14,462 bases of DNA from a virus (lineage: Duplodnaviria; Heunggongvirae; Uroviricota; Caudoviricetes). A model generated the notes under the pieces. It was not told the origin of the DNA. It saw nothing but the letters and a program-made list of their open reading frames with translations, and did not search any database. This document shows positions 31 through 14,396 of the stretch, piece by piece. The DNA lies in the IMG/VR virus record IMGVR_UViG_3300010412_000010, positions 1 to 14,462 of that record; one strand, given 5' to 3'. Positions within the stretch are counted from its first letter, which is position 1. Every line of letters begins with the position of its first letter. Position numbers and translations under genes: made by a program.

Positions 31-78
31 TTATCCGACAAACAAAGGTGTTAACAACAACAATTGTTTAGCAATCAT
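31..78 (-). CDS. possible 15-aa hydrophobic peptide MIAKQLLLLTPLFVG
   Basis: ATG at 78 after GAGGGGG; overlaps the end of the PQ-loop gene and fills the gap to the next SD; too short to be sure. Confidence 0.25.
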   Translation of the reverse strand: MIAKQLLLLTPLFVG

Positions 79-340
79 GATATTCCCCCCTCGGAAAATA
101 CATGTATTTCATTATCACCAAAACAAACACCGTGTTCACCCAGTAGTTCACTAATAGCGGCATGTCCCATCCATGTTTGCCAAACACATACACCTGCATC
201 AACACTTCACCAACAACCCACATCCATACAAACGCATGTGATAATCCTTGGCCATGACCATCGCGCCAACACTTTATGGCTTGTGGCGCACCACACAACG
301 CAAACAATATTCCAGCAGTCCAGCCGATAAGCTCAATCAT
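68..340 (-). CDS. SemiSWEET / PQ-loop family small membrane protein
   Basis: 90 aa, three hydrophobic segments, PQ motif (CGAPQAIK), GLS..F..MW..GE and PL..NY..N patterns; ATGA overlap with upstream gene. Confidence 0.8.
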   Translation of the reverse strand: MIELIGWTAGILFALCGAPQAIKCWRDGHGQGLSHAFVWMWVVGEVLMQVYVFGKHGWDMPLLVNYWVNTVFVLVIMKYMYFPRGEYHDC

Positions 341-612
341 GCATTTGCGCCATGTACCAACTTGATATCCGGAAAGTGTTTTTTGACAAACTGTTCCAGC
401 CCATCACGCGAATAACATTGCCGAAGCTCTGGGACATCTTGATAATGGTCACCAAGTCGTCCAGCCAATTCTAGCGCATATCCAAGTCGACTGTCCACAT
501 CGACAAAATCCCCAGACAACACAAGGGTTGCTTCAAACTGTGGGTCGTTTGAAAAAATTGTTTTGCCGTCTGGGCTTACCGACCACGGACCAAAATCTTG
601 ATATTCTTTCAT
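337..612 (-). CDS. hypothetical phage protein
   Basis: 91 aa, GGAG upstream, ATGA overlaps at both ends. Confidence 0.8.
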   Translation of the reverse strand: MKEYQDFGPWSVSPDGKTIFSNDPQFEATLVLSGDFVDVDSRLGYALELAGRLGDHYQDVPELRQCYSRDGLEQFVKKHFPDIKLVHGANA

Positions 613-926
613 GAACCGACTCCACCAATAGTTTTTTGTTTGTTTCTTGCATTGTTCAGTACAGCATTCGACACATTGATAACGACAACACCAGAAACAT
701 CCATTCCAATTTTTTCAAAATGTTCTTTTATATACTGGACATCCAATATTGCATCAATGGCACATCGTTCTTTTTTGACAAGCGCGTTCAGGATATTGGC
801 AAGTGATTCGGCTTCGTTTTTTGTTGGGAAAACAAATTCGTTTACGGCAGGCTCACTTCCAAGCAATCGACTGCTAGAATCCAAACAACCCCATTGCCCA
901 TTAGAATGCTTTCGTATAACCCACAT
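609..926 (-). CDS. hypothetical protein
   Basis: ATG at 926 in a TGATG overlap with GAGGA upstream (ORF track starts one codon earlier at TTG 929). Confidence 0.75.
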   Translation of the reverse strand: MWVIRKHSNGQWGCLDSSSRLLGSEPAVNEFVFPTKNEAESLANILNALVKKERCAIDAILDVQYIKEHFEKIGMDVSGVVVINVSNAVLNNARNKQKTIGGVGS

Positions 927-1186
927 CAAAAAACATCCTCGCGGTCAATGACTTCACAATCTTCCAATGTGTCTTCCAGCAAATCGGCGGCCAATCTCAA
1001 CAGGGCAGCAAGCTCTTCTGCGGAAGATGGTTTCTTTGCTGAAAACGCCAGTTTGCCGGTATTGAAATAAAATTCACACCGACAGTTGACAAATTGATTT
1101 TTTGCAAAATCTTTGAACAGTCTTTTTGTAAGCCTGTCCATCTGCCATTGTTTATGGCATTCTTTTATTTTTTTGAAAATTAACAT
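926..1186 (-). CDS. hypothetical protein
   Basis: ATG at 1186 after GGTGAG (alternative GTG start at 1195); fills the operon without gaps. Confidence 0.75.
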   Translation of the reverse strand: MLIFKKIKECHKQWQMDRLTKRLFKDFAKNQFVNCRCEFYFNTGKLAFSAKKPSSAEELAALLRLAADLLEDTLEDCEVIDREDVF

Positions 1187-1187
1187 G

Positions 1188-1478
1188 TTACTCACCGATT
1201 GATTTTTTGAAAAAATGCTTTATGCCTTCTATTCCTATTTCTTGTAAAATGGCATCTTCGCCATGATACGAAATGAAATCCGAAATGTCAACAGCAGCAA
1301 TCGCATGGTCGTCGACATACGACTGTAGCGCCACGGTTCCATGCAGGTGGTCAATGATATCGTATGGGTCAATTTCGTTCAGCACATCCGACACATCAGC
1401 ATCAAACTCGATTGACATGCGATACGCGCTATCGGCACTGACATCCAAGGAGCTTACTGTAATACTAAATGTTGGCAT
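1188..1478 (-). CDS. small acidic hypothetical protein
   Basis: 96 aa, GGAGG SD; 19 D/E versus 4 K/R. Confidence 0.85.
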   Translation of the reverse strand: MPTFSITVSSLDVSADSAYRMSIEFDADVSDVLNEIDPYDIIDHLHGTVALQSYVDDHAIAAVDISDFISYHGEDAILQEIGIEGIKHFFKKSIGE

Positions 1479-1587
1479 TATGTGCCTCCACCAAATCTTT
1501 TATCGCCCATTCGTTTCTTGTGATTGGGTTTGCTATCCATGCCTCAACAGCAGTCAATAGTTCACCATGAAATCCGGTTTGATAATA

Positions 1588-2160
1588 TCATCGGGCATAA
1601 TAATTTTCCCATTCTCTTATGTTTTTGAATTTTCCTTCGTATTCAACACCATCAATTATCAACCGCCAATCAGACCATCTAGCCAGTTTTCCGGTTTCGG
1701 CATACTCAACAATATTGGCTTTGAGTTGGTGATAGTTTTCAACAGAAGCATCATCGGCAAGTTCCAATATGGTTTCACCATGCGCAATGATATCGTCGTA
1801 TTTCTTTTTTGGAATCTCCCCAGTTTCATGTTGTATTGCCAATAGACCGCTATGAATAAACATATGGCACGAATGGCACAATGCAACGATTTCGATAAGT
1901 TCCATTCTCCCTCGTTGGTAATCGAAAGAATAAAATTCGTGTGCCTCAAGTCTCTGGTAATACTTGGCGTCACTTTTATGAATGCCACATGCAGCACAAC
2001 GATATCCTGTTTTTCGATATGCCGTCTGTCGCTTATCATCCCACCAAGATTTTCCCATAACCGTGCGCGGGTTTAATCCATGCATTGGTTTTGGAATATT
2101 CGGGTGCAACAATAATTCTGGTCTTGGTGAAAATTTTTTCGGCAAAGTTGGTGTTGTCAC
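1588..2160 (-). CDS. HNH-type zinc-binding endonuclease-like protein
   Basis: WWDDKRQTAY, CAACG, LEAHE and LCHSCHMFIH motifs; GTG start 7 nt after AGGA. Confidence 0.75.
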   Translation of the reverse strand: MTTPTLPKKFSPRPELLLHPNIPKPMHGLNPRTVMGKSWWDDKRQTAYRKTGYRCAACGIHKSDAKYYQRLEAHEFYSFDYQRGRMELIEIVALCHSCHMFIHSGLLAIQHETGEIPKKKYDDIIAHGETILELADDASVENYHQLKANIVEYAETGKLARWSDWRLIIDGVEYEGKFKNIREWENYYAR

Positions 2161-2169
2161 ATGGGAGTC

Positions 2170-2448
2170 CTATTCGTCAAATCGGTAGATATCAAGTCGG
2201 TTCCCATCACCATCAATTGGCCAACCATCTTCGCCATAGAATTCAGGATGAAGCTCTTTGTCGCCATAAACAATTCTGGAACTCACCAACTTCTTCCCAC
2301 ACTTGGCACACCGAATCTCACAAATGGTTGCTCTGGTTGGAGTGAAATCCCAATCCAATGTTGCCCGAATCAACCCGACAGCCGAGCCGGTTTCGAAATC
2401 ATGAATGCAAAAAAATTCTTTCAGTTTTTTTAGAAATTTCTTCATCAT
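2170..2448 (-). CDS. hypothetical protein with C-x-H and CxxC (possible Zn ribbon)
   Basis: FCIHDF ... CAKCG; ATGA overlap with the phosphoesterase stop. Confidence 0.75.
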   Translation of the reverse strand: MMKKFLKKLKEFFCIHDFETGSAVGLIRATLDWDFTPTRATICEIRCAKCGKKLVSSRIVYGDKELHPEFYGEDGWPIDGDGNRLDIYRFDE

Positions 2449-2975
2449 TGCTGGTTCCTAATTCTGGTAAACACTTCTTCGATGTGAATTGGTCGATAAT
2501 CAATATGCTCCACAGACACGCAAAAATATCGCGGGTCAATAAATCCATCAGCGTCAACCACACGACGATAGTGCAGGTGTCCATGAATGTTACACTTCCA
2601 TCGAGACAAACTTTCTTCGTGCACTGGGATATGACTAATCAAACACCCACCCAAAATGTGGTATGCGCGAATGTCTTTGAAATGTGGCGCATAATCGGAC
2701 ATCTTGAAAATGTCGTGATTGCCTTTGATTAGGACTTTCGTACCATTGAGCCTTGGTAAAATGGACAATGATTTCCGGTTGATAACAACATCACCAGCGA
2801 CATACACTTTATCGGTTGGACGAACCGTATCATTCCAACGCAACACCATTTCTTCATCCATTTCGGAAACATCATCCCATGGACGAAGTTTGCTTCCGTC
2901 ATCGCGAAGAAACCGACACACACCATGATGTCCAAAGTGTGGGTCGGCAATCAAGAACGATTCGCCGCCGAACAT
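2445..2975 (-). CDS. calcineurin-like metallophosphoesterase (phage/AQ1575-like type)
   Basis: All five signature motifs: DPHFGH, GD, GNHD, SH(IP), HGHLH; TAATG overlap with upstream gene. Confidence 0.92.
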   Translation of the reverse strand: MFGGESFLIADPHFGHHGVCRFLRDDGSKLRPWDDVSEMDEEMVLRWNDTVRPTDKVYVAGDVVINRKSLSILPRLNGTKVLIKGNHDIFKMSDYAPHFKDIRAYHILGGCLISHIPVHEESLSRWKCNIHGHLHYRRVVDADGFIDPRYFCVSVEHIDYRPIHIEEVFTRIRNQQ

Positions 2976-3241
2976 TAGTCAATGTTCGAACTGATAACGG
3001 CGCGCGCCAACGAAAGTAGTTTCGGTGTATTCAGTACAGCAATACATACGGCAACCATTTCATTACATGCCAGCGCTTCGTCATCTGGTTTCTGCATCGA
3101 CAGAAAGATTTCAACACGGTTGTCGGGACGGATAACAATAGCCGCGTCCCCAGGATTCACAACAACGGTGGCCGAGTTGTCGGTTAATTCAACAACATCC
3201 AATCCAGCCAACTTCAATCGCTCCAGCTTATCATTACTCAT
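2975..3241 (-). CDS. hypothetical protein
   Basis: 88 aa; AAGGAG SD; first gene after the 3280-3307 promoter. Confidence 0.85.
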   Translation of the reverse strand: MSNDKLERLKLAGLDVVELTDNSATVVVNPGDAAIVIRPDNRVEIFLSMQKPDDEALACNEMVAVCIAVLNTPKLLSLARAVISSNID

Positions 3242-3279
3242 ATATGACTCCTTATAAACAACATTATCAAATTTTCGTA

Positions 3280-3307
3280 ATTATATACGACCCCAGTGAT
3301 TGGTCAA
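3280..3307 (-). promoter_or_regulatory. sigma70-type early promoter TTGACC-16-TATAAT
   Basis: -35 at 3307-3302, -10 at 3285-3280, A/T tracts upstream, in an 86-bp intergenic gap. Confidence 0.8.
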
Positions 3308-3327
3308 TGGGTTTTTTTCAAAAAACT

Positions 3328-3693
3328 TTATTTGTACTTGGCAATCAGGATGATGATTTCCTTTGCCAGTTCTTCCATCCCATCCCGTTTAATAGCGACA
3401 CACGCCACATCACGAAGGGAATCCAATACATCGGCTGCGTCTATATTAGCCGACATGTTGTTTTTGGAAATGTCGGTTACAGCAATACCATAAACCGACC
3501 GTAAACTGGAAAGAACATGTGCCGGAGGCAATGGCACAGAATCAGTGTGGACAAATTCTTTACCCGAAAAAAGACCATCCGCGATATCCTTTGCCTCTCT
3601 CAAACCAAACCCAAAAACCGTGCGCAATTCCCTGATTGTCGCGACTCTATTCGCAACCAAATACCCCTGAACGAGCGATAGCCGAACTTCCAT
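3328..3693 (-). CDS. protein with N-terminal ribosomal bL12 (L7/L12) C-terminal-domain-like motif
   Basis: ANRVATIRELRTVFGFGLREAKDIADG aligns to E. coli L7/L12 [27 protein letters not shown] (13/27 identical); GGGGGT SD. Confidence 0.75.
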   Translation of the reverse strand: MEVRLSLVQGYLVANRVATIRELRTVFGFGLREAKDIADGLFSGKEFVHTDSVPLPPAHVLSSLRSVYGIAVTDISKNNMSANIDAADVLDSLRDVACVAIKRDGMEELAKEIIILIAKYK

Positions 3694-3711
3694 AATTTAC
3701 CCCCCACCAAA

Positions 3712-4284
3712 TCAAGCAGCGGTTTTTGTTGCGTTCAATTTCACCAAGTTCTTGATAAGCACGGCCAAATCCGAATTCACATCCGCCACTTCCAGATACG
3801 CATTAGCGGCAGCAATCACATCGGCTTCCACTGGCTCAACATCAACGGCAGGTTCGCCAGTATACACGAACGGTTTATTCCAACGACCAAGATTCAGGTC
3901 AACATAATGGCCAACATCGAAATAGTCGGCTTGGATGTCGCTGTTGTTGTAGTTGTCGGTGTTCAGCGCGCTCATGATATTCTCAATCACTTCCAGCGTT
4001 TCATCAAAATAGTCACGGAACCAATATGGATTCACATCGACATATGTCGGTGCGTTCGCGCTCAGTCGCTTGTATGCTTCGACTGAGTGATAATCGGTTT
4101 TGTATTTCAGCTTGTCCATCACGACGCGAGCATATTCGGCCATCAAATCAACCGGAGCCGAATACACGGTCATGACGATGGTTGAGTGATTATCGACAGC
4201 CAACGACCATTTCCAGTCTTTTGGGACAACCTTTTTCAGTTCCGCGCGAATCTTTGCTTTCTTCTCTTTGCTCACATATGCCAT
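3712..4284 (-). CDS. conserved phage protein, LPD29-like (polyvalent-protein-associated domain; tentative)
   Basis: MAYVSKE..KIR..LKK, NHST, VNPYW and SDIQADYFDVG.Y.D...G.WNKP motifs; GAGGA SD. Confidence 0.7.
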   Translation of the reverse strand: MAYVSKEKKAKIRAELKKVVPKDWKWSLAVDNHSTIVMTVYSAPVDLMAEYARVVMDKLKYKTDYHSVEAYKRLSANAPTYVDVNPYWFRDYFDETLEVIENIMSALNTDNYNNSDIQADYFDVGHYVDLNLGRWNKPFVYTGEPAVDVEPVEADVIAAANAYLEVADVNSDLAVLIKNLVKLNATKTAA

Positions 4285-4313
4285 GATAAAATCCTCTTTG
4301 TTTTCACCAGTCC

Positions 4314-4342
4314 ATTAAACCACAACTCGACAAAAAACACAA
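4314..4342 (-). promoter_or_regulatory. probable sigma70-type promoter TTGTGT-17-(TGn)TTTAAT
   Basis: Correct spacing, extended TG and upstream A-tract, but the -10 lacks the conserved A. Confidence 0.45.
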
Positions 4343-4355
4343 TATTTTTTGGAAT

Positions 4356-4484
4356 TTATTTGTAGAACCAGCAGGTGAATGGGGCGCTTCGATACAACAC
4401 CCAACCATCGTTTTTTAGCCGCTCGGCTCGCGCCATTCCAGCAATGGTAGATACATCGACGGTTACATAATTGCGATTCTGCAT
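4356..4484 (-). CDS. 42-aa small protein absent from the ORF track (MQNRNYVTVDVSTIAGMARAERLKNDGWVLYRSAPFTCWFYK)
   Basis: GGAGG 4 nt before ATG 4484; TAA at 4358-4356; fills the gap between the upstream gene and the next promoter. Confidence 0.75.
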   Translation of the reverse strand: MQNRNYVTVDVSTIAGMARAERLKNDGWVLYRSAPFTCWFYK

Positions 4485-4496
4485 ATATCCTCCAAG

Positions 4497-4784
4497 TTAC
4501 TCTTCTTCTTCTTCTTCGGGTTCAGCCAAAATAACGCCATGGATGACTCGAATTTCAGTGAGGTATTTTGCACCAAGCAGCGCGGCAACAATTTCTTCCC
4601 TATCCATGGTATCCAATTTTGCAACCAACTCATTGCGGCGACATTCATGACACACACCATTAATTGCCACATACCCGTTCTTTTTGTATTCGCTAATTCG
4701 AGAGCGGTCCATACGATTGCGACCATCCATCGTATTACTGGCCTCACAACCGCATTCCCATCGAACAATCACTTTAGTACCCAT
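4497..4784 (-). CDS. hypothetical protein with Cys pairs and poly-Glu tail
   Basis: ATG 4784 after GGAGG (ORF track starts at TTG 4805); CGC...CHEC; ends PEEEEEE. Confidence 0.8.
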   Translation of the reverse strand: MGTKVIVRWECGCEASNTMDGRNRMDRSRISEYKKNGYVAINGVCHECRRNELVAKLDTMDREEIVAALLGAKYLTEIRVIHGVILAEPEEEEEE

Positions 4785-4817
4785 CAACTTCTTCCTCCCA
4801 AACAAACCTTCACTGTC

Positions 4818-4846
4818 ATATTAGCAAGATTTTTTCGAAAAAACAA
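4818..4846 (-). promoter_or_regulatory. sigma70-type promoter TTGTTT-17-(TGn)TAATAT overlapped by palindromes
   Basis: -35 at 4846-4841, -10 at 4823-4818, extended TG. Confidence 0.6.
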
Positions 4847-4861
4847 GGTTTTCGAAAAAAC
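4830..4861. repeat. tandem palindromes TTTTTTCGAAAAAA and TTTTCGAAAA
   Basis: Perfect palindromes at 4830-4843 and 4849-4858; the 13-mer TTTTCGAAAAAAC is repeated at a 17-bp period. Confidence 0.9.
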
Positions 4862-4862
4862 A

Positions 4863-5162
4863 TCAATAAAAATCATACCCTTCTTTTTCTTTAGCATCGA
4901 CCAACCAAGTCGGAATCAAATACGCCACTTGTCCACGGGTATCATTGTAAAAATCATCGACCACCCTAATCAGTTGGCTTTTTGGGAACCAACAATACCC
5001 GTCAGTTAGGTAACCAACCGAATTGAATTTACGCACCTTGAAACATACGGCCTTGGCGCTTGTTCGGTATGGCTCTTTAGAAAACAGGCTGTAACCGCTT
5101 GACATTGCGCCTAATGAGACCCAACGACTAACCAATCCATCGAAACGCGGTTTGTCTTTCAT
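4863..5162 (-). CDS. conserved phage hypothetical protein
   Basis: ATG 5162 after GGGGGT (the ORF-track extension to 5258 runs through the promoter); T.KA...W.PKSQ...IP.WL pattern. Confidence 0.75.
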   Translation of the reverse strand: MKDKPRFDGLVSRWVSLGAMSSGYSLFSKEPYRTSAKAVCFKVRKFNSVGYLTDGYCWFPKSQLIRVVDDFYNDTRGQVAYLIPTWLVDAKEKEGYDFY

Positions 5163-5187
5163 AACGACCCCCAATCCATACAATTTC

Positions 5188-5216
5188 AGTATACCAGAAT
5201 AACAGATTTTTTTCAA
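5188..5216 (-). promoter_or_regulatory. strong sigma70-type promoter TTGAAA-17-(TGn)TATACT
   Basis: -35 at 5216-5211, -10 at 5193-5188, 25 nt before ATG 5162. Confidence 0.85.
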
Positions 5217-5286
5217 AAATATTCGGGGAGTTGATTTGGGGATTATCCATGAAACCATGGGGACAATTTACAAAATAAAAAACAAC

Positions 5287-5462: not shown

Positions 5463-5490
5463 TTGACAGCCCGAATTTTATGTTTACAAT
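5463..5490 (+). promoter_or_regulatory. sigma70-type promoter TTGACA-16-TACAAT
   Basis: Perfect -35 at 5463-5468, -10 at 5485-5490. Confidence 0.7.
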
Positions 5491-5502
5491 ACTTTCTGTC
5501 AA
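5475..5502 (-). promoter_or_regulatory. sigma70-type promoter TTGACA-16-TAAAAT
   Basis: Perfect -35 at 5502-5497, -10 at 5480-5475; mirror image of the plus-strand promoter. Confidence 0.7.
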
Positions 5503-5684: not shown

Positions 5685-7610
5685 ATGTCAAATAATCAAA
5701 ACGGAAGCCTTTCCGACAGACTTGTTTCTATTCTGGTAAAAAATCAATTACCAGAATTTGTTCGATTTGATTATCCAACCTTTGTTGCGTTCTTGGAAGC
5801 GTACTATGAATGGATGGAATTGACCGGCAATGTAATCGAACGAAGCCAGTGTTTGGAAAATTATCTGGATGTCGATACAACCATAGATGATTTCATCACC
5901 GCATTCAAAAAAGACTATTTGACCAATGTTCCGGAAAAACTATTTTCCAGCCATGTTAATCAAGACATCGTATTTGTTGGTGGAAGCCTCGAATATGAAA
6001 TTGACTATGTTGTTACCGATTCAACCAATATCACCGTTTATGCCGATGGAATAAAAATTCCACCAGAAGACTATTCGATTTCCAGTGTTGGTGGTGCGTG
6101 TGCCAGTCACAAGTTTGTTATCACATTGGACGGTGCTTATATCGGCGCAACCGAAATAAAAGTCAATATCCAAGAGGACGCGGAAGTCAATGATGCCCAG
6201 TTGATTAAAAATATCATTGAATTTTATCGAGCGCGCGGAACAGAAAAATCGTTCAAGTTGCTGTTCCGTATTCTGTTCAACCAAGACATCGAAATCCTGT
6301 ACCCAAAAGAAAACATCCTGAAGTGGTCTGACGGTAAGTGGCTATCGGATGAAACATCTATCAGGGTAACAACCGAAACAGATGTGGATGGGTTGTTGTA
6401 TCGCCAAGTCAATATTGTGGAATACAACCCGATACTTGGCCAAGACCAATTGATAGGCAAGGCATCCGTTGAGCGGATTTCAAAGCGAAGTCTCGGAAAA
6501 TATTATGTGGCTGATTTGTTCTTGACTAACATTATCGGAACAATCAAACCGGCAAACCAATATTTCAATATTGCTGGAACAATCAAACCGAATGTTCGCG
6601 TGGTGGCGGACTTCAAGGACATTAACGGCGTTGATGTCCATATTGAAGAGTCCATCTATCCAGTATTGACCGCCATGGATGTCACCGTCGCTGGTGCTTC
6701 TTATAATGTCAGCAACACATTCACTATTCCGGATGACAAGACATATGCGTTGTCATATAAGGTGCGAAACTCATCCGGCCATCCACTAAACTATGTTTTC
6801 TCTCTTGGTTTGAGTGCCAACCTGATAACTGCTGATGTCGATGTTTCTGTAAACTCCATTCCACTGGTTGCCGGTGTTGACTATACAGTATCCGGCGATA
6901 ATGTGACTTTTGTCAATGGGTTGTCATATAACGATGTTGTCGATTTCTGGTTGATAGCTACTGGTGCTAAGTGCTCAATCAAGAAAACCGATGGTGCTGG
7001 TGCTATACAAAAAATCAAAGTAGAAGAACTTGGTGTTGGTTATATCGACGGATATATCGTAAACATCACATCCATTGGCGATGGTAATGCGCAAGCAGTC
7101 ACAAGTGACGGTGCGCGATTCCTGTATGACGGTAGATATATCAATGTTGATGGGCACTTGTCCGAGCGTACCATGCGACTACAGGATGGTTTCTATTACC
7201 AACAATATTCATATGTAATCAAATCGTCACTGTCTGTTGACCAATATGCGGACGCTGTGAAGCGGTTGGTTCATCCAGCCGGTATGAAGATGTTCGGTCA
7301 ATTGACCATCGAATCGTGTGCAAGTGCTGCGACGAATTTTTGTAAATTCTATGTTGATGACGAAACCTCTTCTGTTATCCAGATTGTGTCTGGAAACTCA
7401 CCATGGCATGGGCCAACTTGGGAATCGTTTGATTACATAATGAAGTTTCGCTTCCCAGAAAACTACACTGGTTCTGGTACATACCCAACACAAATTGAAT
7501 ATTTTGAAGACTACGATGTGGATACCATCGAATCCATGTATCCGGATAGTGTTCAATACGCAACTGGTGCCGAGGTGGAGATTGTGATTGCTGTTCCACC
7601 AGCCCCATAA
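5685..7610 (+). CDS. gp7: baseplate wedge protein, gp7-like (cyanomyovirus-type)
   Basis: LPEFV..YPTFV.FLEAYYEWME, LIKNI.EFY.A.GTE.SF..LFRILF, SDGKW, LQDG.YYQ.YSYVIKS and LVHPAGMK.FG motifs; directly upstream of the gp8-like gene. Confidence 0.7.
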   Translation: MSNNQNGSLSDRLVSILVKNQLPEFVRFDYPTFVAFLEAYYEWMELTGNVIERSQCLENYLDVDTTIDDFITAFKKDYLTNVPEKLFSSHVNQDIVFVGGSLEYEIDYVVTDSTNITVYADGIKIPPEDYSISSVGGACASHKFVITLDGAYIGATEIKVNIQEDAEVNDAQLIKNIIEFYRARGTEKSFKLLFRILFNQDIEILYPKENILKWSDGKWLSDETSIRVTTETDVDGLLYRQVNIVEYNPILGQDQLIGKASVERISKRSLGKYYVADLFLTNIIGTIKPANQYFNIAGTIKPNVRVVADFKDINGVDVHIEESIYPVLTAMDVTVAGASYNVSNTFTIPDDKTYALSYKVRNSSGHPLNYVFSLGLSANLITADVDVSVNSIPLVAGVDYTVSGDNVTFVNGLSYNDVVDFWLIATGAKCSIKKTDGAGAIQKIKVEELGVGYIDGYIVNITSIGDGNAQAVTSDGARFLYDGRYINVDGHLSERTMRLQDGFYYQQYSYVIKSSLSVDQYADAVKRLVHPAGMKMFGQLTIESCASAATNFCKFYVDDETSSVIQIVSGNSPWHGPTWESFDYIMKFRFPENYTGSGTYPTQIEYFEDYDVDTIESMYPDSVQYATGAEVEIVIAVPPAP

Positions 7611-7672: not shown

Positions 7673-9016
7673 ATGACTGCGATTATTACCAAAAAATCAA
7701 AAATCAACAACGCGAAAAATTTCATTGAGTCTTTTTATGAAAAGTCTCCGGACTATATGTACCTGTTTATTGGCAGGAATAGTGCATGGCCAAACGAAGC
7801 GGTTCCGCCCGTTCCATTGGACACCGTATACGAAGAAATACAACGCCACACTGAATTGATGGCCGGTAAGAAAATAAATGAGACTGGATTGTCGCTTGTT
7901 ATTCCGAGACACGACTGGGTAAGCGGAACCATATACGCCGAATATGACGACCAAGACCCGTCACTTTTTACAAAAAATTTCTATGTAATCAACAACGAGT
8001 TCGATGTGTTCAAGTGTGTGTCGAACAATGGTGGCGCGGCTTCTACTAACATGCCGGATTCTGGTGATGCCGTTTCTGGGTCAAACACCGGCATGATTGA
8101 AACCTCGGACGGATATGTCTGGAAGTTTATGTACAATGTCAATGCACAAATGCAGCAATATTTGACCGCCAACTGGATTCCTGTTCGCGACATTTATTTT
8201 GACGATGGTAGCGCCCAAGCAAACCAAAAGTTTGGTGCGGTAGATGGGGCAATTCACCGATACATTGTATTGGATGGTGGTTCTGGTTATACGACTGCTA
8301 CCGTGTCTATTGTCGGTGTTGGTTCTGGTGCTACTGCAACCGCGACAATTTCTGGTGGCGCAATCACCGAAGTGTTTATTGATGCCGCTGATAGTGCTGG
8401 TTCCGGATATTTTACCGAGCCGGTAGTAACCATCGTTGGAGACGGCTCTGGTGCTGATGTGCGCGCCGTTCTTAGTCCTATTGGTGGCCATGGCTATGAT
8501 GCTGTCCGTGAGCTTGGTGGGCACTATGCGATGGCGTACACCGTGCTTGAATCTGATGAGGGCGGCACTTTCCCTGTTGATTTGGGTGGTGGTGAGGGTG
8601 AGTTCCGTGTGTTTGGATTGATTAAAAATCCTCGCTCATCCGTTGATGATGGTCTGTATATGAAGATAACTGGGTTCGACGCGTGTGATATCGCTGTTGG
8701 TGATACGCTCGAAAAAGCATCCGATGCTGGCGTCAATGGTACTGTGTTTGGGTTTGATTGGAAGACCCAAGAAATTTATGTTGGCAATATCACTGGCACT
8801 TTTGTAGATGGCGATTCGGTTAAAAAATCCGGCAGTGCTGTGATTGGCTCTATCAGTGATTTACAGACAAACTATCCGATGCCTATTATCGCGTCCGTGT
8901 TCGAACAAAGTGAATTTTTGGCCGGAACCGGCGATATTTTATATGTCGAAAATAGATTGTCTATTACCAGAAACCTGAACCAAAACGAAGAAGTTCGGTT
9001 GGTAGTAGAGTTCTAA
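7673..9016 (+). CDS. gp8: baseplate wedge subunit gp8-like
   Basis: NAKNF, YLFIGR..AW, IPRHDW.SG..Y, FYV.N....V.KC..N, DGY.WK.MY, GGSGY repeats, SP.GGHG.DA..ELG and C-terminal E.VRLVVEF motifs. Confidence 0.88.
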   Translation: MTAIITKKSKINNAKNFIESFYEKSPDYMYLFIGRNSAWPNEAVPPVPLDTVYEEIQRHTELMAGKKINETGLSLVIPRHDWVSGTIYAEYDDQDPSLFTKNFYVINNEFDVFKCVSNNGGAASTNMPDSGDAVSGSNTGMIETSDGYVWKFMYNVNAQMQQYLTANWIPVRDIYFDDGSAQANQKFGAVDGAIHRYIVLDGGSGYTTATVSIVGVGSGATATATISGGAITEVFIDAADSAGSGYFTEPVVTIVGDGSGADVRAVLSPIGGHGYDAVRELGGHYAMAYTVLESDEGGTFPVDLGGGEGEFRVFGLIKNPRSSVDDGLYMKITGFDACDIAVGDTLEKASDAGVNGTVFGFDWKTQEIYVGNITGTFVDGDSVKKSGSAVIGSISDLQTNYPMPIIASVFEQSEFLAGTGDILYVENRLSITRNLNQNEEVRLVVEF

Positions 9017-9059: not shown

Positions 9060-12000
9060 ATGTCTAAACCAAAGACAGATTTTAATGTTGCTCCGTATTA
9101 CGACGATTTCGACGAAGCAAAACAATACCTGAAACTTTTGTTCCGTCCTGGCTATGCCGTTCAGGCGCGCGAGGGAACACAAATCCAGTCTGTTCTTCAG
9201 AACCAAATTTCCCGATTTGCTGATTACACTTTCAATGAAGGTTCTGAAATCCTTGGTGGCAAGACTGTTATTGACTTGGAATATTCGTATGTGAAGCTTC
9301 AGTCAATCAGCACAACCATGTCAAACATTTCCCAGTTGTTGTCGACATATACATTAGTGATTACTGGTGATACGACTGGCATTGAATCCGAGTTGTCAAA
9401 TATCGCGGTTGCTGGTGGCGGTGACCCAAACACTTTCTTTGTTAAATATCGCTCTGGTGGTGCTGCTGGCGAAAAAACATTCCAACCATCCGAACCGCTG
9501 ACTATTGTTGCATACGAAACCCAAGATTTGGTTGACAATGGTATTGGTGGAGCGACGCCGATTGAAACTCATAGTGCCGTTGTTGGTGCTGCTGGTGATT
9601 CGGTTGGGGTCGGTTGTGCCGCGTCTATTGGTGATGGTACTCGTTATGTTGGTGGATTTGCTGTTCTGGTTAGTGAACAGACATTGATTCTTGACAAATA
9701 CAACAATCGCCCAAGCTACCAAGTTGGATTGAAAATCGTCGAAGAAATCATTGACGAAGAAGATGACCCAACCCTGTTGGACAATGCACAGGGTTCTACC
9801 AATTTCACTGCTCCTGGTTCACATCGTTTCCGTGTGCGATTGGTGTTGACAAAATACGCACTGAACGACAATACCGATGAAGATTTTATCAAGATTGTTG
9901 AATTGCGCGAAGGTACCGTTCAGCGTGATTACCGCGAATCACAACTGAAAGCGCCTGGTATTGGTAGAGAGTTTGCTCGTCGATTCTATGACCAATCTGG
10001 CGACTTTATTATCGACAAATTCAAGATTGATATTCGTGAGCATTTGTTGGAAGGTGGTAATCGCGGTAAGTTCTTGCCGCCACCTACTGGCACCGGCGAT
10101 GAAACAAAACTGGTTGCCGATTTCGACCCAGGTCGTGCGTATGTAAACGGATATGAAATCAATACCACTGGTTCTGAATTTGTGGAACTGGATAAAGCGC
10201 GTGATACTGGATTTGAAAACAATGCTGCCGTGTCTACTGACATGGGATACTATACCCTTATTACCGAACTGACTGGTATTCCTGATATCGTCAACTTCAC
10301 TAAGGTGGAGTTGTATGAAGGTGACCCAGATTTGCCAGGTGCGGTTCTTGTTGGTTATGCGAGAATCCGCCACTTGGAACCACATGTTCTAAAAGATGGT
10401 GACGCAAACGACATTCTTGATTCTGATTCTGTTTGGAGAATGTATGGGTTTGCTCTTGAAATTGTCGCCGCTCCATCTTCCGATGATATTTGGCTTACCG
10501 ACGGTCAATTCAAGGCGCGTTCACTGACTACCGCCGAAGGTGGTGTGTTTGTAACAAAAGAACCGGCTGCTATCAAAGAACTGCCATTCAAAATTATCGA
10601 ATCGACATCCGATTTGATTTATTCGACCCGAAGAATCATGAACGGTGTTCTTGTTGCGGATGGTTTGTTGACCAAAGTTGTGCTGTCTGGTCTTCCGTCT
10701 GGCGAAGCATTTGCGCCAGCAACACAAGAAAACTACATTTTGCAGTATGACTCTGGGGCATATGTAGACCAGTTCGCAAATATTGCCGGTAATGTGGCAA
10801 TTGACTCTATTAATAATATTGTGACCATTGGTAGTTTGCAGGGAGCCGTTGGTGACCTTGTGAAAGTAATGGTTACTATCATTAAAGAAACACCACCAGC
10901 ACCGAAACTGAAAAACCTGACAAACCGAGTTCAAAATTTTGTTTCCCCTGGTTCTGGTAATATTACCCTTGACCGCGCCGACATTTTCCGTGTGAATAGT
11001 GTTATTGACGATGTTACATTGGAAGACATTACGCTTAAATATGCAGTTGATGGTGGCCAAAGAGACGGTTTCTATGGTCTTGGTCGATTGGTGCTTCGTG
11101 CTGGCGTTGTCGAGCCTACCGGAAATGTTACCGTCAATTACGACTATTTTGCGCATGTTGGTTCTGGTGATTATTTCTCCGTTGAATCATATGACCATAT
11201 TGGTGGTGTTGATTATGCGGACATTCCATCATATACGGACACCACCGGAAAGATATTCAATCTTCGCGATTGTTTGGATTTCCGCCCACGCATTGACAAT
11301 ACTGGTGACAACTTTACCGCTCCTGGTTCCAGCCGAAACGAAATTTACATTCCAATTGGCCAGATTACTGCGGATACTACCTACTACCTGAGCCGCATTG
11401 ACAAAATTGTAATGACAGAAGAAGGCGTGTTCCAAGTTATTCGTGGTGAACCCGCATTGAATCCAGTTCCGCCACCAGACCCAAAAAGCGGCATGGTGTT
11501 GTATGAACTGTTTATTCCAGCATACACATTCAACCCGAAAGATGTGATTATCAATTATCGTGAGCACAAAGGCTACACGATGAAAGACATTTCCAACTTG
11601 GAGCGTCGTGTTCATAACATTGAATACTACACCGCGTTGAACCTGTTGGAACGCAATGTAAAAGACCAATCCATTGTAGACCCAGACACCGGCATCGAAC
11701 GATTCAAGAACGGGTTTGTGGTGGATGGTTTCACTAACCACAAGGTTGGTGATTTGGAAAACCGTGACTACAAATGTTCGATGGACCAACAGTTTTCTGA
11801 AATGCGTCCAGAATATTTTGCGAATGATATTGGGTTGGAATTCAACCCAAGCAAGAGCCAGAAGTTCAAGCAAACAGGAAAAATGTTGTCTGTTGACTAC
11901 ACCGAAACCGCTTTCATTATTCAGGCCAGCGGAACCGGCACTATCAATATTAACCCATTCAATATTTTCAACTGGGTTGGTGGTCGTGTCGAAATGACCC

Positions 12001-14396
12001 CGAATTCTGATACTTGGAAGTCCGTTAAGTACGAACAACCAATTCGTACTTGGGTTCAGAACGAAGACTACGCGGAAGAAAAGGCCGCATTGTCAACCAA
12101 GTTCTTGGATGAACACCCAACCGAACGATTCAATTCGTATTACCACAATGCACCTCAATATGGTTGGTATGGTGCCGACGGAAGCTTCAACTCGCAAGGA
12201 ACATTGTCGAAGGTAACCACTGGTTGGGGCGGTCCAACAGTAAACGATTATCGTTTGGCATACAATGGATATTTCTCTAGCTGGAACACTATCGGCAAAG
12301 ACTATCTGTTGTCTGGTTATATCAACCGAATTATTCCAGAAGAAGTAACTACCGTGGTTGGCGACAAGATTGTTCGTACAGACCAAGTTGAGTTTATTCG
12401 GGCGAATACTGTTCAGCTTAGTGTGTATGGTCTGAAACCAAATACAAGACACTATGCATTCTTCAATGATGTTAATGTGGATTCGCTTGTCTCTCCTGCC
12501 ACTTTGGTGAGTAATGACCAAGGCGAAATCACTGCTACATTTACAATTCCAGACCCGACCAATCCACCAAGCCCAGAATATGTGTTCCGTACTGGTGAGA
12601 GAATTTTCCGTATTATCGACAACAACACAAACAATGTGTTGGAAGCCGAGAGCTATGCGGAAGGTGTTTACACGGCTGCTGGTATTATCGAATTCAGACA
12701 ACAAACAATTGAAGCGACGGAAAAACCTCGTGTATACCGCGTACCGTTTACACAGAAGGTGTTGTCTCGAACCGTGAACAATGCGCCGAGTGGGTATAAT
12801 GGATTCTTGTATGGTTATAACTATGCGTGGGGATTCTATTTCTACAACCAACAACAACAGGGCGACCAGAAAGTTGCATATGCCGACCCATTGGCACAGA
12901 CTTTCCTAGTGAACAAAACAGGCGGCGTATTCGCAACGAGTATCGACTTGTATTTTGCATCGAAAGACCAAAACATTCCGGTTACGCTGCAAATTCGTGA
13001 AGTAGAAAATGGCTTCCCGACACAAAGAATTATCCCGTTTGGCGAGGTGACAAAAAACCCGTCCGCAATTTCTGTGTCCACTGATGGTTCCGTTCCTACC
13101 AGATTCACCTTCAGTGCTCCGGTATACCTGAAAGAAGGCATCGAATATTGCTTCGTGTTGCAGACCAACACCGATAAGTACAATGTATTCATGTCCCAAA
13201 TGGGTGAAGTTGATATCCTGAGTGGACAAGCAGTTACCAAACAATCGCACTTGGGCGTGATGTTGGTATCGTCAAACTCATCCACATGGACTCCGGAACA
13301 GGACAAAGACCTGAAGTTCACTATGAACATCGCGGATTTCCAAGATGTCAATGACAATATTGACACTGTATTGGTATTCGACAACAAACAAGTTCCGGCG
13401 CAGCAAATGAAGAACAACCCATTCTTTGCCGATACCACTTTCTTGGTGAAAGTTAGCCAACGAAACCATGGCATGGTGGATGGTAGTGAAGTTGTATTGG
13501 CTGGAACAACTGCGGTAACAACAGGACCAGCCGTTACTATTGATGGTACTTGGACGATATTCAATTCCGGTATTGACCATTATTACATTGATATGTCGGA
13601 GAATGGGCTGGAACTTTTGAATCTTGGTGTTGATTTTGGTGGGCCAGTCGCACAGGCAACTCGCCAGATTCAAATTGATTCGTTGTATCCGTTAGTACAG
13701 AGACTTGTTCCGAAAGGTACGCAGGCGCGCGCGTTCGTGCGCATGACTACCGGAAAACAAGTTCCTGGGTTTGCCACAGGCTCATATGTTCGCGATGTCA
13801 ATGTTTCTCCAATCACAATGGATGAATACACGGACATGAGTCGTCCATATATTGTCGCGTCGGATATTAACGAACTGAACAAACTTGGTGGTCTGAAGTC
13901 ATTCGAATTGCATGTTGTAATTGGTACTGCGGTTCGTAACCTGTCGCCGCTGGTTGATTCTACCCGCGTAGCATGTAATGCGAAATCAAATCGAATTGAA
14001 TATTTCTCAGACATTTCTGATGAGCTAACTGCTTATGGTCAGAAGTCTTCTGCGAGATATATCACAAGGGCTATTCCGCTTAACAGCACATCCAATGGGC
14101 TTCGTATCCTATTTGATGCAAATAGACCAAACGATTCTGATATTACTGTTTATTATCGCGGAACCAACTCGGATGCGATTAATATCGCGGAACAAGGGTG
14201 GACGGAAATGACCGTCGTTAGAAAACCAGGTGTGACCAGCGATAGAACTCGATATGAAGAATATGAGTATGAGGTTGACGATTTGGTTTCAGCATCACAG
14301 TTCTCGACATTCCAAGTCAAGTTAGTGATGCGCGCTAGAAACTCTTCTCGTCCACCAATTATTCGCGCGTTTAGGGCAATTGCACTTGGTACATAA
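9060..14396 (+). CDS. vrlC: large virion structural protein, VrlC-like (DUF4815)
   Basis: PYYDDFD...Y...LFRPG..VQARE.TQ.QS.LQ.QI N-terminus; DENDP-like EEDDPTLLDNAQG..N..APG.HR; LE.RV.NIEYYT.L.LLE; RFKNGF.VD.F; DPLAQTF; S.N.STWT..Q..DLKF motifs. Confidence 0.85.
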   Translation: MSKPKTDFNVAPYYDDFDEAKQYLKLLFRPGYAVQAREGTQIQSVLQNQISRFADYTFNEGSEILGGKTVIDLEYSYVKLQSISTTMSNISQLLSTYTLVITGDTTGIESELSNIAVAGGGDPNTFFVKYRSGGAAGEKTFQPSEPLTIVAYETQDLVDNGIGGATPIETHSAVVGAAGDSVGVGCAASIGDGTRYVGGFAVLVSEQTLILDKYNNRPSYQVGLKIVEEIIDEEDDPTLLDNAQGSTNFTAPGSHRFRVRLVLTKYALNDNTDEDFIKIVELREGTVQRDYRESQLKAPGIGREFARRFYDQSGDFIIDKFKIDIREHLLEGGNRGKFLPPPTGTGDETKLVADFDPGRAYVNGYEINTTGSEFVELDKARDTGFENNAAVSTDMGYYTLITELTGIPDIVNFTKVELYEGDPDLPGAVLVGYARIRHLEPHVLKDGDANDILDSDSVWRMYGFALEIVAAPSSDDIWLTDGQFKARSLTTAEGGVFVTKEPAAIKELPFKIIESTSDLIYSTRRIMNGVLVADGLLTKVVLSGLPSGEAFAPATQENYILQYDSGAYVDQFANIAGNVAIDSINNIVTIGSLQGAVGDLVKVMVTIIKETPPAPKLKNLTNRVQNFVSPGSGNITLDRADIFRVNSVIDDVTLEDITLKYAVDGGQRDGFYGLGRLVLRAGVVEPTGNVTVNYDYFAHVGSGDYFSVESYDHIGGVDYADIPSYTDTTGKIFNLRDCLDFRPRIDNTGDNFTAPGSSRNEIYIPIGQITADTTYYLSRIDKIVMTEEGVFQVIRGEPALNPVPPPDPKSGMVLYELFIPAYTFNPKDVIINYREHKGYTMKDISNLERRVHNIEYYTALNLLERNVKDQSIVDPDTGIERFKNGFVVDGFTNHKVGDLENRDYKCSMDQQFSEMRPEYFANDIGLEFNPSKSQKFKQTGKMLSVDYTETAFIIQASGTGTININPFNIFNWVGGRVEMTPNSDTWKSVKYEQPIRTWVQNEDYAEEKAALSTKFLDEHPTERFNSYYHNAPQYGWYGADGSFNSQGTLSKVTTGWGGPTVNDYRLAYNGYFSSWNTIGKDYLLSGYINRIIPEEVTTVVGDKIVRTDQVEFIRANTVQLSVYGLKPNTRHYAFFNDVNVDSLVSPATLVSNDQGEITATFTIPDPTNPPSPEYVFRTGERIFRIIDNNTNNVLEAESYAEGVYTAAGIIEFRQQTIEATEKPRVYRVPFTQKVLSRTVNNAPSGYNGFLYGYNYAWGFYFYNQQQQGDQKVAYADPLAQTFLVNKTGGVFATSIDLYFASKDQNIPVTLQIREVENGFPTQRIIPFGEVTKNPSAISVSTDGSVPTRFTFSAPVYLKEGIEYCFVLQTNTDKYNVFMSQMGEVDILSGQAVTKQSHLGVMLVSSNSSTWTPEQDKDLKFTMNIADFQDVNDNIDTVLVFDNKQVPAQQMKNNPFFADTTFLVKVSQRNHGMVDGSEVVLAGTTAVTTGPAVTIDGTWTIFNSGIDHYYIDMSENGLELLNLGVDFGGPVAQATRQIQIDSLYPLVQRLVPKGTQARAFVRMTTGKQVPGFATGSYVRDVNVSPITMDEYTDMSRPYIVASDINELNKLGGLKSFELHVVIGTAVRNLSPLVDSTRVACNAKSNRIEYFSDISDELTAYGQKSSARYITRAIPLNSTSNGLRILFDANRPNDSDITVYYRGTNSDAINIAEQGWTEMTVVRKPGVTSDRTRYEEYEYEVDDLVSASQFSTFQVKLVMRARNSSRPPIIRAFRAIALGT

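Follow-up and report, generated by a model that had tools for sequence, protein, structure and literature searches.

A diverged phage protein with a bL12 C-terminal-domain-like region and a C-terminal helical hairpin in the early region of an uncultivated T4-like bacteriophage

The window analysed here, a stretch of phage DNA of 14,462 nucleotides, contains an array of small open reading frames (ORFs) on the minus strand (positions ~60-5260) facing plus-strand genes of the T4 baseplate type, which encode gp6-like and gp8-like proteins and a large structural protein with a DUF4815 domain (Table 1). The gene under study lies within the minus-strand array, and its product is designated P0001. The frame is free of stop codons on translation and is validated by the homologies described below; gene calls on five further metagenome contigs have the same neighbours and give the identical product. 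Its ATG is located 18 nt past the stop codon of an upstream gene for a 190-aa protein, and a G-rich purine run in this interval may act as its Shine-Dalgarno-like signal. A consensus scan returned three sigma-70-like promoters with 11/12 matches, all of which are intergenic, these being pattern matches only whose total count in the region is the same as in shuffles. Two of them face each other where the early genes meet the structural genes, and the P0001 gene lies downstream of sigma-70-like promoters from the same scan. The third is positioned just past the P0001 stop codon and would open a separate transcription unit with the following gene (2975-3241, 88 aa); if this candidate promoter does serve that gene, P0001 is the last gene of its own unit. 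No tRNA was found in the window. The DNA is present in marine-sediment metagenomes of at least two studies, and the P0001 gene is genuine, part of the early region of a T4-like phage from marine sediment that has not been cultivated. In line with the early role proposed in the earlier note on this DNA, it sits in an early-type gene array.

Table 1. Positions of the P0001 gene, its parts and the neighbouring features in the window
Feature	Position	Strand	Description and basis
P0001 gene	3328..3693	-	121 aa; ATG 3693-3691, stop TAA 3330-3328; ORF list and translation
Probable whole bL12-CTD-like domain	3466..3687	-	P0001 residues 3-76; family profile A3
Helix hairpin	3574..3654	-	P0001 residues 14-40; corresponds to bL12 helices 4 and 5, E. 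coli residues 63-89
C-terminal two-helix hairpin	3331..3444	-	P0001 residues 84-121; conserved in, and specific to, the phage family described below; family motif LR.LG.QALLQGEDELANEILQLVLAEKLRR
Candidate Shine-Dalgarno-like G-rich purine run	3700..3708	-	GGTGGGGGG; ends 6 nt before the P0001 ATG; direct reading
Sigma-70-like promoter (candidate)	3280..3307	-	TTGACC, 16 nt, TATAAT; 11/12, consensus scan; just past the P0001 stop
Sigma-70-like promoters, facing pair (candidates)	5463-5490 / 5475-5502	+ / -	11/12 consensus; early/structural gene boundary
gp6-like baseplate wedge protein	5685-7610	+	641 aa
gp8-like baseplate wedge protein	7673-9016	+	447 aa
Structural protein, DUF4815 (phrog_358)	9060-14396	+	1778 aa; after the gp6-like and gp8-like genes

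Two of the neighbouring genes could be given a partial identity. The 190-aa protein encoded upstream (3712-4284, minus) belongs to phrog_10415 and is without a Pfam match; about 75 nt of its gene match phages of the Sinorhizobium phiM12 group and Agrobacterium phage Atu_ph07 at ~80% DNA identity, and some of these records label the matching gene 'DnaJ'. Two genes downstream of P0001 (2445-2975, minus) is a 176-aa metallophosphoesterase-like protein of phrog_547, which weakly resembles the ligase-associated phosphoesterase of the PdeM type.

The window corresponds to contig C289 in an archaeal genome bin (G000) of 1.7 Mb, and the two agree in G+C. The elongation factor of the bin is aEF-1alpha, located on contig C36, and the archaeal P-stalk protein family PF00428 was not found in the bin, which is 77% complete. 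Archaea are not known to have bL12; PF00542, the Pfam family of the bL12 C-terminal domain (CTD), was detected in 0/20 relatives and is present in ten bacterial control genomes. The baseplate protein of the contig is closest to those of T4-like phages of Pseudomonas, Pelagibacter, Methylophilales and cyanobacteria, and the intergenic promoters are bacterial in type. The contig is probably that of a bacteriophage mis-binned into an archaeal genome bin, a misplacement that the P0001 case serves to flag, and a host inferred from the bin would thus be wrong.

The feature that drew attention to P0001 is a segment near its N-terminus, residues 14-40, which the earlier note had matched to E. coli L7/L12. 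HMMER alignment reproduces the 13 identities in 27 positions, and the segment corresponds to the hairpin of bL12 helices 4 and 5, the face that contacts translational GTPases. Of the residues on this face, V66, I69, R73 and K84 are kept as V17, I20, R24 and K35, and K65, K70 and K81 are replaced by arginine (R16, R21 and R32), both as originally stated; the factor-contact residues of helices 4 and 5 present in P0001 occupy positions that are 78-100% conserved in the family described below. The best 11 PDB sequence matches of P0001 are all L7/L12, and residues 13-51 align by HMMER to the E. coli L7/L12 CTD chains 1ctf, 3j9y and 2bcw with E ~0.02. The Pfam search proposed in the earlier note does match PF00542 (Ribosomal_L12), at profile positions 10-36 of 67 and with E 2.2e-4, although the score of 21.9 bits falls below the cut-off of 25.9. 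The NCBIfam L12 model matches P0001 with E 0.004, and hhalign against 31 full CTD modules gives a probability of 95.3% and E 2e-8. The resemblance of the hairpin to bL12 is, as judged from these sequence comparisons, real and beyond chance. The N-terminal domain of bL12 and the hinge are missing, in agreement with the original claim: P0001 has no match to PF16320 (bL12 N-terminal domain), and the hairpin begins after only 13 residues.

Structure prediction recovers this hairpin and little else of the ribosomal domain. The AF2 model of P0001 computed from an alignment of modules (A2) is all-helical and without strands, with helices at residues 2-12, 16-27 and 31-43 and, after a loop, at 58-78 (pLDDT ~60), 86-102 and 107-120 (both pLDDT 80-89). 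The hairpin has pLDDT values of 82-95 over residues 11-40, those of residues 1-10 and 44-80 being ~49 and ~60, so that low-confidence helices occupy the places where the CTD strands belong. From the single sequence the model was unusable (pLDDT 51.5). In local Foldseek superpositions the hairpin fits L7 chain 2zjq_5 with an rmsd of 0.6 Å over 24 columns, and 8rdw_D, the bL12 chain of a ribosome-EF-Tu complex entry, with 0.7 Å over 23 columns. The whole AF2 model gave no match at E <= 0.001 in a Foldseek search of the PDB, and the Atlas shape search returned mixed families at TM <= 0.44. The nearest feature clusters to P0001 in the ESM Atlas are viral, 121-128 aa in length and carry PF00542. 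ClpS, an N-degron adaptor of the L12-CTD fold class, also appears in these comparisons: the P0001 hairpin superposes locally on chain 1r6o_D (rmsd 0.7 Å, 29 columns), the structural neighbours in the Atlas include a viral ClpS cluster, and a low-confidence ESM Atlas model of residues 1-77 resembles both ClpS and bL12 models (TM 0.43-0.55). However, PF02617 (ClpS) gives no Pfam match at E <= 1 in P0001 or in members of its family, and all of the sequence evidence points to bL12 and not to ClpS.

The affiliation of P0001 beyond the hairpin becomes visible only at the level of a protein family. IMG/VR was scanned for a conserved motif and the candidates were then confirmed against P0001. A 122-aa ORF on a 385-kb phage contig (P0063) matches residues 5-117 of P0001 at 30% identity (BLASTP E 2e-10), and a second full-length match is the member at locus L020. 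P0063 itself has ~85 cluster relatives of 107-141 aa, each with a precomputed PF00542 match and some of them on contigs of 290-388 kb. The P0001 family comprises at least 80 clusters, all from uncultivated phages, some of whose contigs are of jumbo-phage size. P0001 was left out of a family hidden Markov model (HMM), which recognizes it over residues 10-117 with 42.5 bits; residues 77-121 by themselves reach 13.3 bits in this model, where they fall on the collinear positions 83-113 of the profile (E 3.4e-6 as a single comparison). Because the whole protein is recognized by this HMM and its C-terminal hairpin scores on its own, P0001 is, by sequence, a divergent member of a 'bL12 CTD + C-terminal hairpin' family. 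The full-length family was not detected in 50,697 cultivated-phage records or in PHROGs; tblastn of P0001 and P0063 against cultivated phages detected only the hairpin of a Ralstonia RSJ5 protein and one uncultured 642-kb record, and a word-based homologue search with P0001 returned P0001 alone. The family with the C-terminal hairpin appears to be uncharacterised so far.

In the alignment of P0001 with 81 relatives (A3) the family begins with a strand-like segment (F.I..P), followed by the nearly invariant hairpin, a short strand-like segment and a variable loop. After the loop stands EEQ.RILR.EGVEVG, the counterpart of bL12 helix C and strand 3, and then a strongly conserved C-terminal stretch ending GEDELANEILQLVLAEKLRR. 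The profile of this alignment matches complete CTD modules with an hhalign probability of 99.0% (63 columns, template positions 5-67 of 71); it also matches residues 56-125 of Thermotoga maritima L7/L12 (1dd3) with E 1.3e-12 and a dozen further L7/L12 PDB chains with E values between 1e-12 and 1e-10. Similarly, PF00542 is matched at E <= 1 in 82/82 family members (best E 5.2e-12). The whole CTD thus probably extends over residues ~3-79 of P0001, strongly diverged outside the hairpin; the elements expected in residues 3-76 are strand 1, the hairpin, strand 2, helix C and strand 3, with residues 42-80 too diverged for significant alignment. An initial reading, in which P0001 was a short three-helix module only, was superseded by the alignment of the family to the whole CTD. 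The family profile also revises the statement in the earlier note that residue 40 is followed by an unrelated region of ~75 aa: a helical tail that is not L12 does exist, but it comprises ~40 aa, with CTD homology reaching to residue ~79.

The C-terminal hairpin has no Pfam or PHROG match and was not found in longer proteins, the latter being weak evidence. Two candidate relationships for it were rejected: residues 85-112 do not qualify as another, degenerate L12 module (E 2.4), and the best PDB match, the designed helical repeat protein 7rdr, is taken to reflect generic helical similarity. It could be argued that this hairpin replaces the N-terminal hairpin of bL12 and docks on uL10 or the 50S subunit, such that phage heads would be built into host ribosomes. 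The element is indeed two-helical, highly conserved and similar in size to the N-terminal domain of bL12, and mass spectrometry of 70S fractions has identified one phage bL12-domain protein (PMC6375957). The hairpin, however, displays no sequence similarity to bL12 N-terminal domains (hhalign probability 1.2%; PF16320 in 0/82 family members), and in the same study the tagged phage protein did not co-purify ribosomes (PMC6375957), which leads us to view a stalk substitute as improbable. Still less credible is a DNA-binding helix-turn-helix (HTH) regulator of early transcription whose likeness to bL12 derives from the HTH-like geometry of helices 4 and 5. This proposal draws on weak structural neighbours (KorA, HigA, CueR, TetR, sigma factors and an MqsA/HTH_3 cluster) and on weak HTH_27 matches in 10/82 family members (best E 0.004). 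None of the HTH structural matches is significant (Foldseek E > 3), whereas the sequence signal is repeatedly and specifically that of bL12 and, at the family level, covers the full alpha/beta domain, making a regulator of this type very unlikely.

Conservation within the family is centred on the factor-contact hairpin, which is its most conserved block. In the 81 relatives the equivalents of I69, K70, R73, G79, L80, K81, A83, K84 and D85 are 100% conserved, with E82 at 99%, K65 at 91% and V66 at 78%. P0001 deviates at near-invariant positions of this block, with lysine replaced by arginine three times and the changes A22E and T27F, and it has lost the helix-C/strand-3 signature; its function may thus have shifted or relaxed. 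Indeed P0001 is the most divergent member, sharing 17-31% identity with the others. These data could reflect a decaying or functionally released copy that is drifting away from its family and lacks the family function, given that residues 91-100% conserved elsewhere are altered and that such a gene is absent from three related T4-like loci. Against this possibility, the frame is intact and preceded by a good ribosome-binding site, the hairpin changes (K to R) are conservative, the C-terminal hairpin can still be recognised and at least three independent studies have the identical P0001 sequence; we thus hold decay to be a poor explanation and quite unlikely. Three further runs yielded contigs spanning part of the gene; these agree letter for letter and hence carry no information for a selection test on strain variants.

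Members of the family are found, in every context examined, within long arrays of small unannotated co-directional ORFs. No neighbours are common to the different family contexts, and no protein of the window other than P0001 has a homologue near the members. Furthermore, an L12 module is missing from three related T4-like loci that were reached by way of the 190-aa neighbour. The P0001 gene, without common neighbours and missing from these relatives, thus behaves as a mobile accessory early gene.

Searching with the single P0001 sequence leads to a different group of proteins. An exhaustive phmmer search of 1.8e9 representatives returned 61 matches at E <= 1e-3 (best 4.9e-12), all through residues ~14-45, and no full-length relative. 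The matched proteins (P0002-P0062) are non-ribosomal and bacterial, with 2-7 tandem L12-like modules; complete CTDs account for 47 of the 202 modules and the short hairpin-only form (~30 aa, helical) for the other 155, and several of the proteins start or end with a hydrophobic segment resembling a membrane anchor. Non-ribosomal bacterial proteins with tandem L12 modules are apparently a large uncharacterised class. In one of them, P0003, the modules are fused to LRV/HEAT repeats. These proteins share with P0001 the hairpin motif (starting NKI.) and provide its best single-sequence matches. In contrast with their 2-7 copies, which mostly lack beta strands, and with the membrane-anchor-like segments of several of them, P0001 contains one copy, belongs to a family with a full CTD and has a different C-terminal part. 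The existence of this class raises the possibility that the hairpin is a generic L12-derived interaction module and that P0001 is an early protein binding some other host or phage target outside translation. The 61 best database matches of P0001, being multi-module and not ribosomal, the predominance of the hairpin-only form among their modules (155/202) and the AF2 model (module alignment), in which residues 2-43 fold as a three-helix unit like those modules, are all consistent with this proposal, and no conserved neighbour ties the family to translation genes. It should be emphasized, however, that the phage family aligns with the complete ribosomal CTD and not just with the short module, that its invariant residues are those contacting factors in bL12, and that the bacterial modules, their function being uncharacterised, could likewise bind GTPases. 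We regard a generic module of this kind as rather unlikely.

The two-helix face of bL12 contacts IF2, EF-Tu, EF-G and RF3. These contacts between CTD and factor are weak and normally need several copies held on the stalk. In P0001 and its relatives the factor face is the best-kept part and an anchor is absent, and the simplest reading is that the protein would dock the same partners off the stalk. PMC3299993 describes the CTD as the site of interaction with translational GTPases (citing Helgstrand 2007 and Kothe 2004) and the bL12 N-terminal domain as the element that anchors dimers on helix 8 of uL10. As the most conserved block of the family coincides with the two-helix factor face, a free head would likely dock a translational GTPase. 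The best explanation for the whole of the data, to which we would grant a little less than an even chance, is that P0001 belongs to a family of phage proteins with a bL12 head, in which a free head would dock, off the stalk, either a translational GTPase of the host or the GTPase-associated centre. In its most likely mode, docking would take place early in infection, and the C-terminal hairpin may supply self-association or a second contact.

Docking of translational GTPases by the P0001 family is thus plausible, but conserved residues need not mean GTPase binding, since the hairpin also occurs as a stand-alone module in non-ribosomal bacterial proteins. Also counting against the docking reading are the weakness of CTD-factor contacts and their usual dependence on several stalk-held copies, the PF00542 score of P0001 below the Pfam cut-off, the AF2 model without beta strands and the binning of the contig with an archaeon. 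A complex prediction of P0001 (with A3) and E. coli EF-Tu scored 0.01 against a mark of 0.32, a run without controls that speaks neither for nor against binding. A narrower proposal is that P0001 is a soluble 'free stalk head' that captures EF-Tu, EF-G, IF2 or RF3 early, the hairpin serving to oligomerise the protein, with a gain in avidity, or to tether the factor to a phage partner or the ribosome; in this specific form we consider it unlikely. If true, the free stalk head would constitute a dedicated class of phage translation-takeover factors common to T4-like and jumbo phages.

Phage proteins with a bL12 domain but without the ribosomal N-terminus were described by Mizuno et al. (2019, Nat Commun 10:752; PMC6375957), who proposed that they might offer interfaces to translation factors and whose evidence for ribosome association is ambiguous, and rpL7/L12 genes are listed for huge phages by Al-Shayeb et al. 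(2020; PMC7162821). The statement that bL12 homologues have been reported in some phages is thus documented in both studies. The role of adaptor or decoy for translational GTPases suggested in the earlier note is a possible one, and had been raised for such phage proteins before (PMC6375957). P0001 is a new, diverged member of this kind of phage bL12-domain protein, known since 2019. Like the proteins of Mizuno et al. it has a PF00542-type domain in a phage, keeps the factor-contact residues, lacks the ribosomal N-terminal domain and appears patchily acquired in varied contexts; unlike them it is part of a separate family of ~120-aa proteins in which a C-terminal helical hairpin is conserved. 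The published list contains bL12 only in phages under 80 kb (PMC6375957), whereas members of the P0001 family are found on contigs of 290-388 kb as well as in a T4-like phage. The bL12 examples of cultivated phages are of other families, namely phrog_26927, where the Ralstonia RSJ5 protein is placed, and four further PHROGs; they match through the hairpin only. With bacterial bL12 (1CTF, 1DD3) P0001 has in common the face of helices 4 and 5 (V66/I69/K70/R73/K81/E82/K84), and its family profile shares the whole domain of three strands and three helices. P0001 differs from the ribosomal protein in that it lacks the hinge, the N-terminal dimerisation and uL10-binding domain and an rplJL operon context, in its additional C-terminal hairpin, and in the divergence of its strand 2, helix C and strand 3.

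Phages are thus known to acquire the factor-docking head of the stalk. This study extends that picture with a compact family of ~120 aa, present in at least 80 clusters on T4-like and jumbo-sized contigs, that combines an invariant factor face with an extra hairpin. A consensus member of the family would be a convenient subject for binding and translation work, to which the diverged P0001 itself adds little. A separate architecture was also observed on the IMG/VR contigs L009 (2291-2689) and L012 (2216-2674), whose 130-150-aa proteins have a helical domain at the N-terminus and, after it, a complete bL12-like CTD at the C-terminus, an arrangement distinct from that of the P0001 family.
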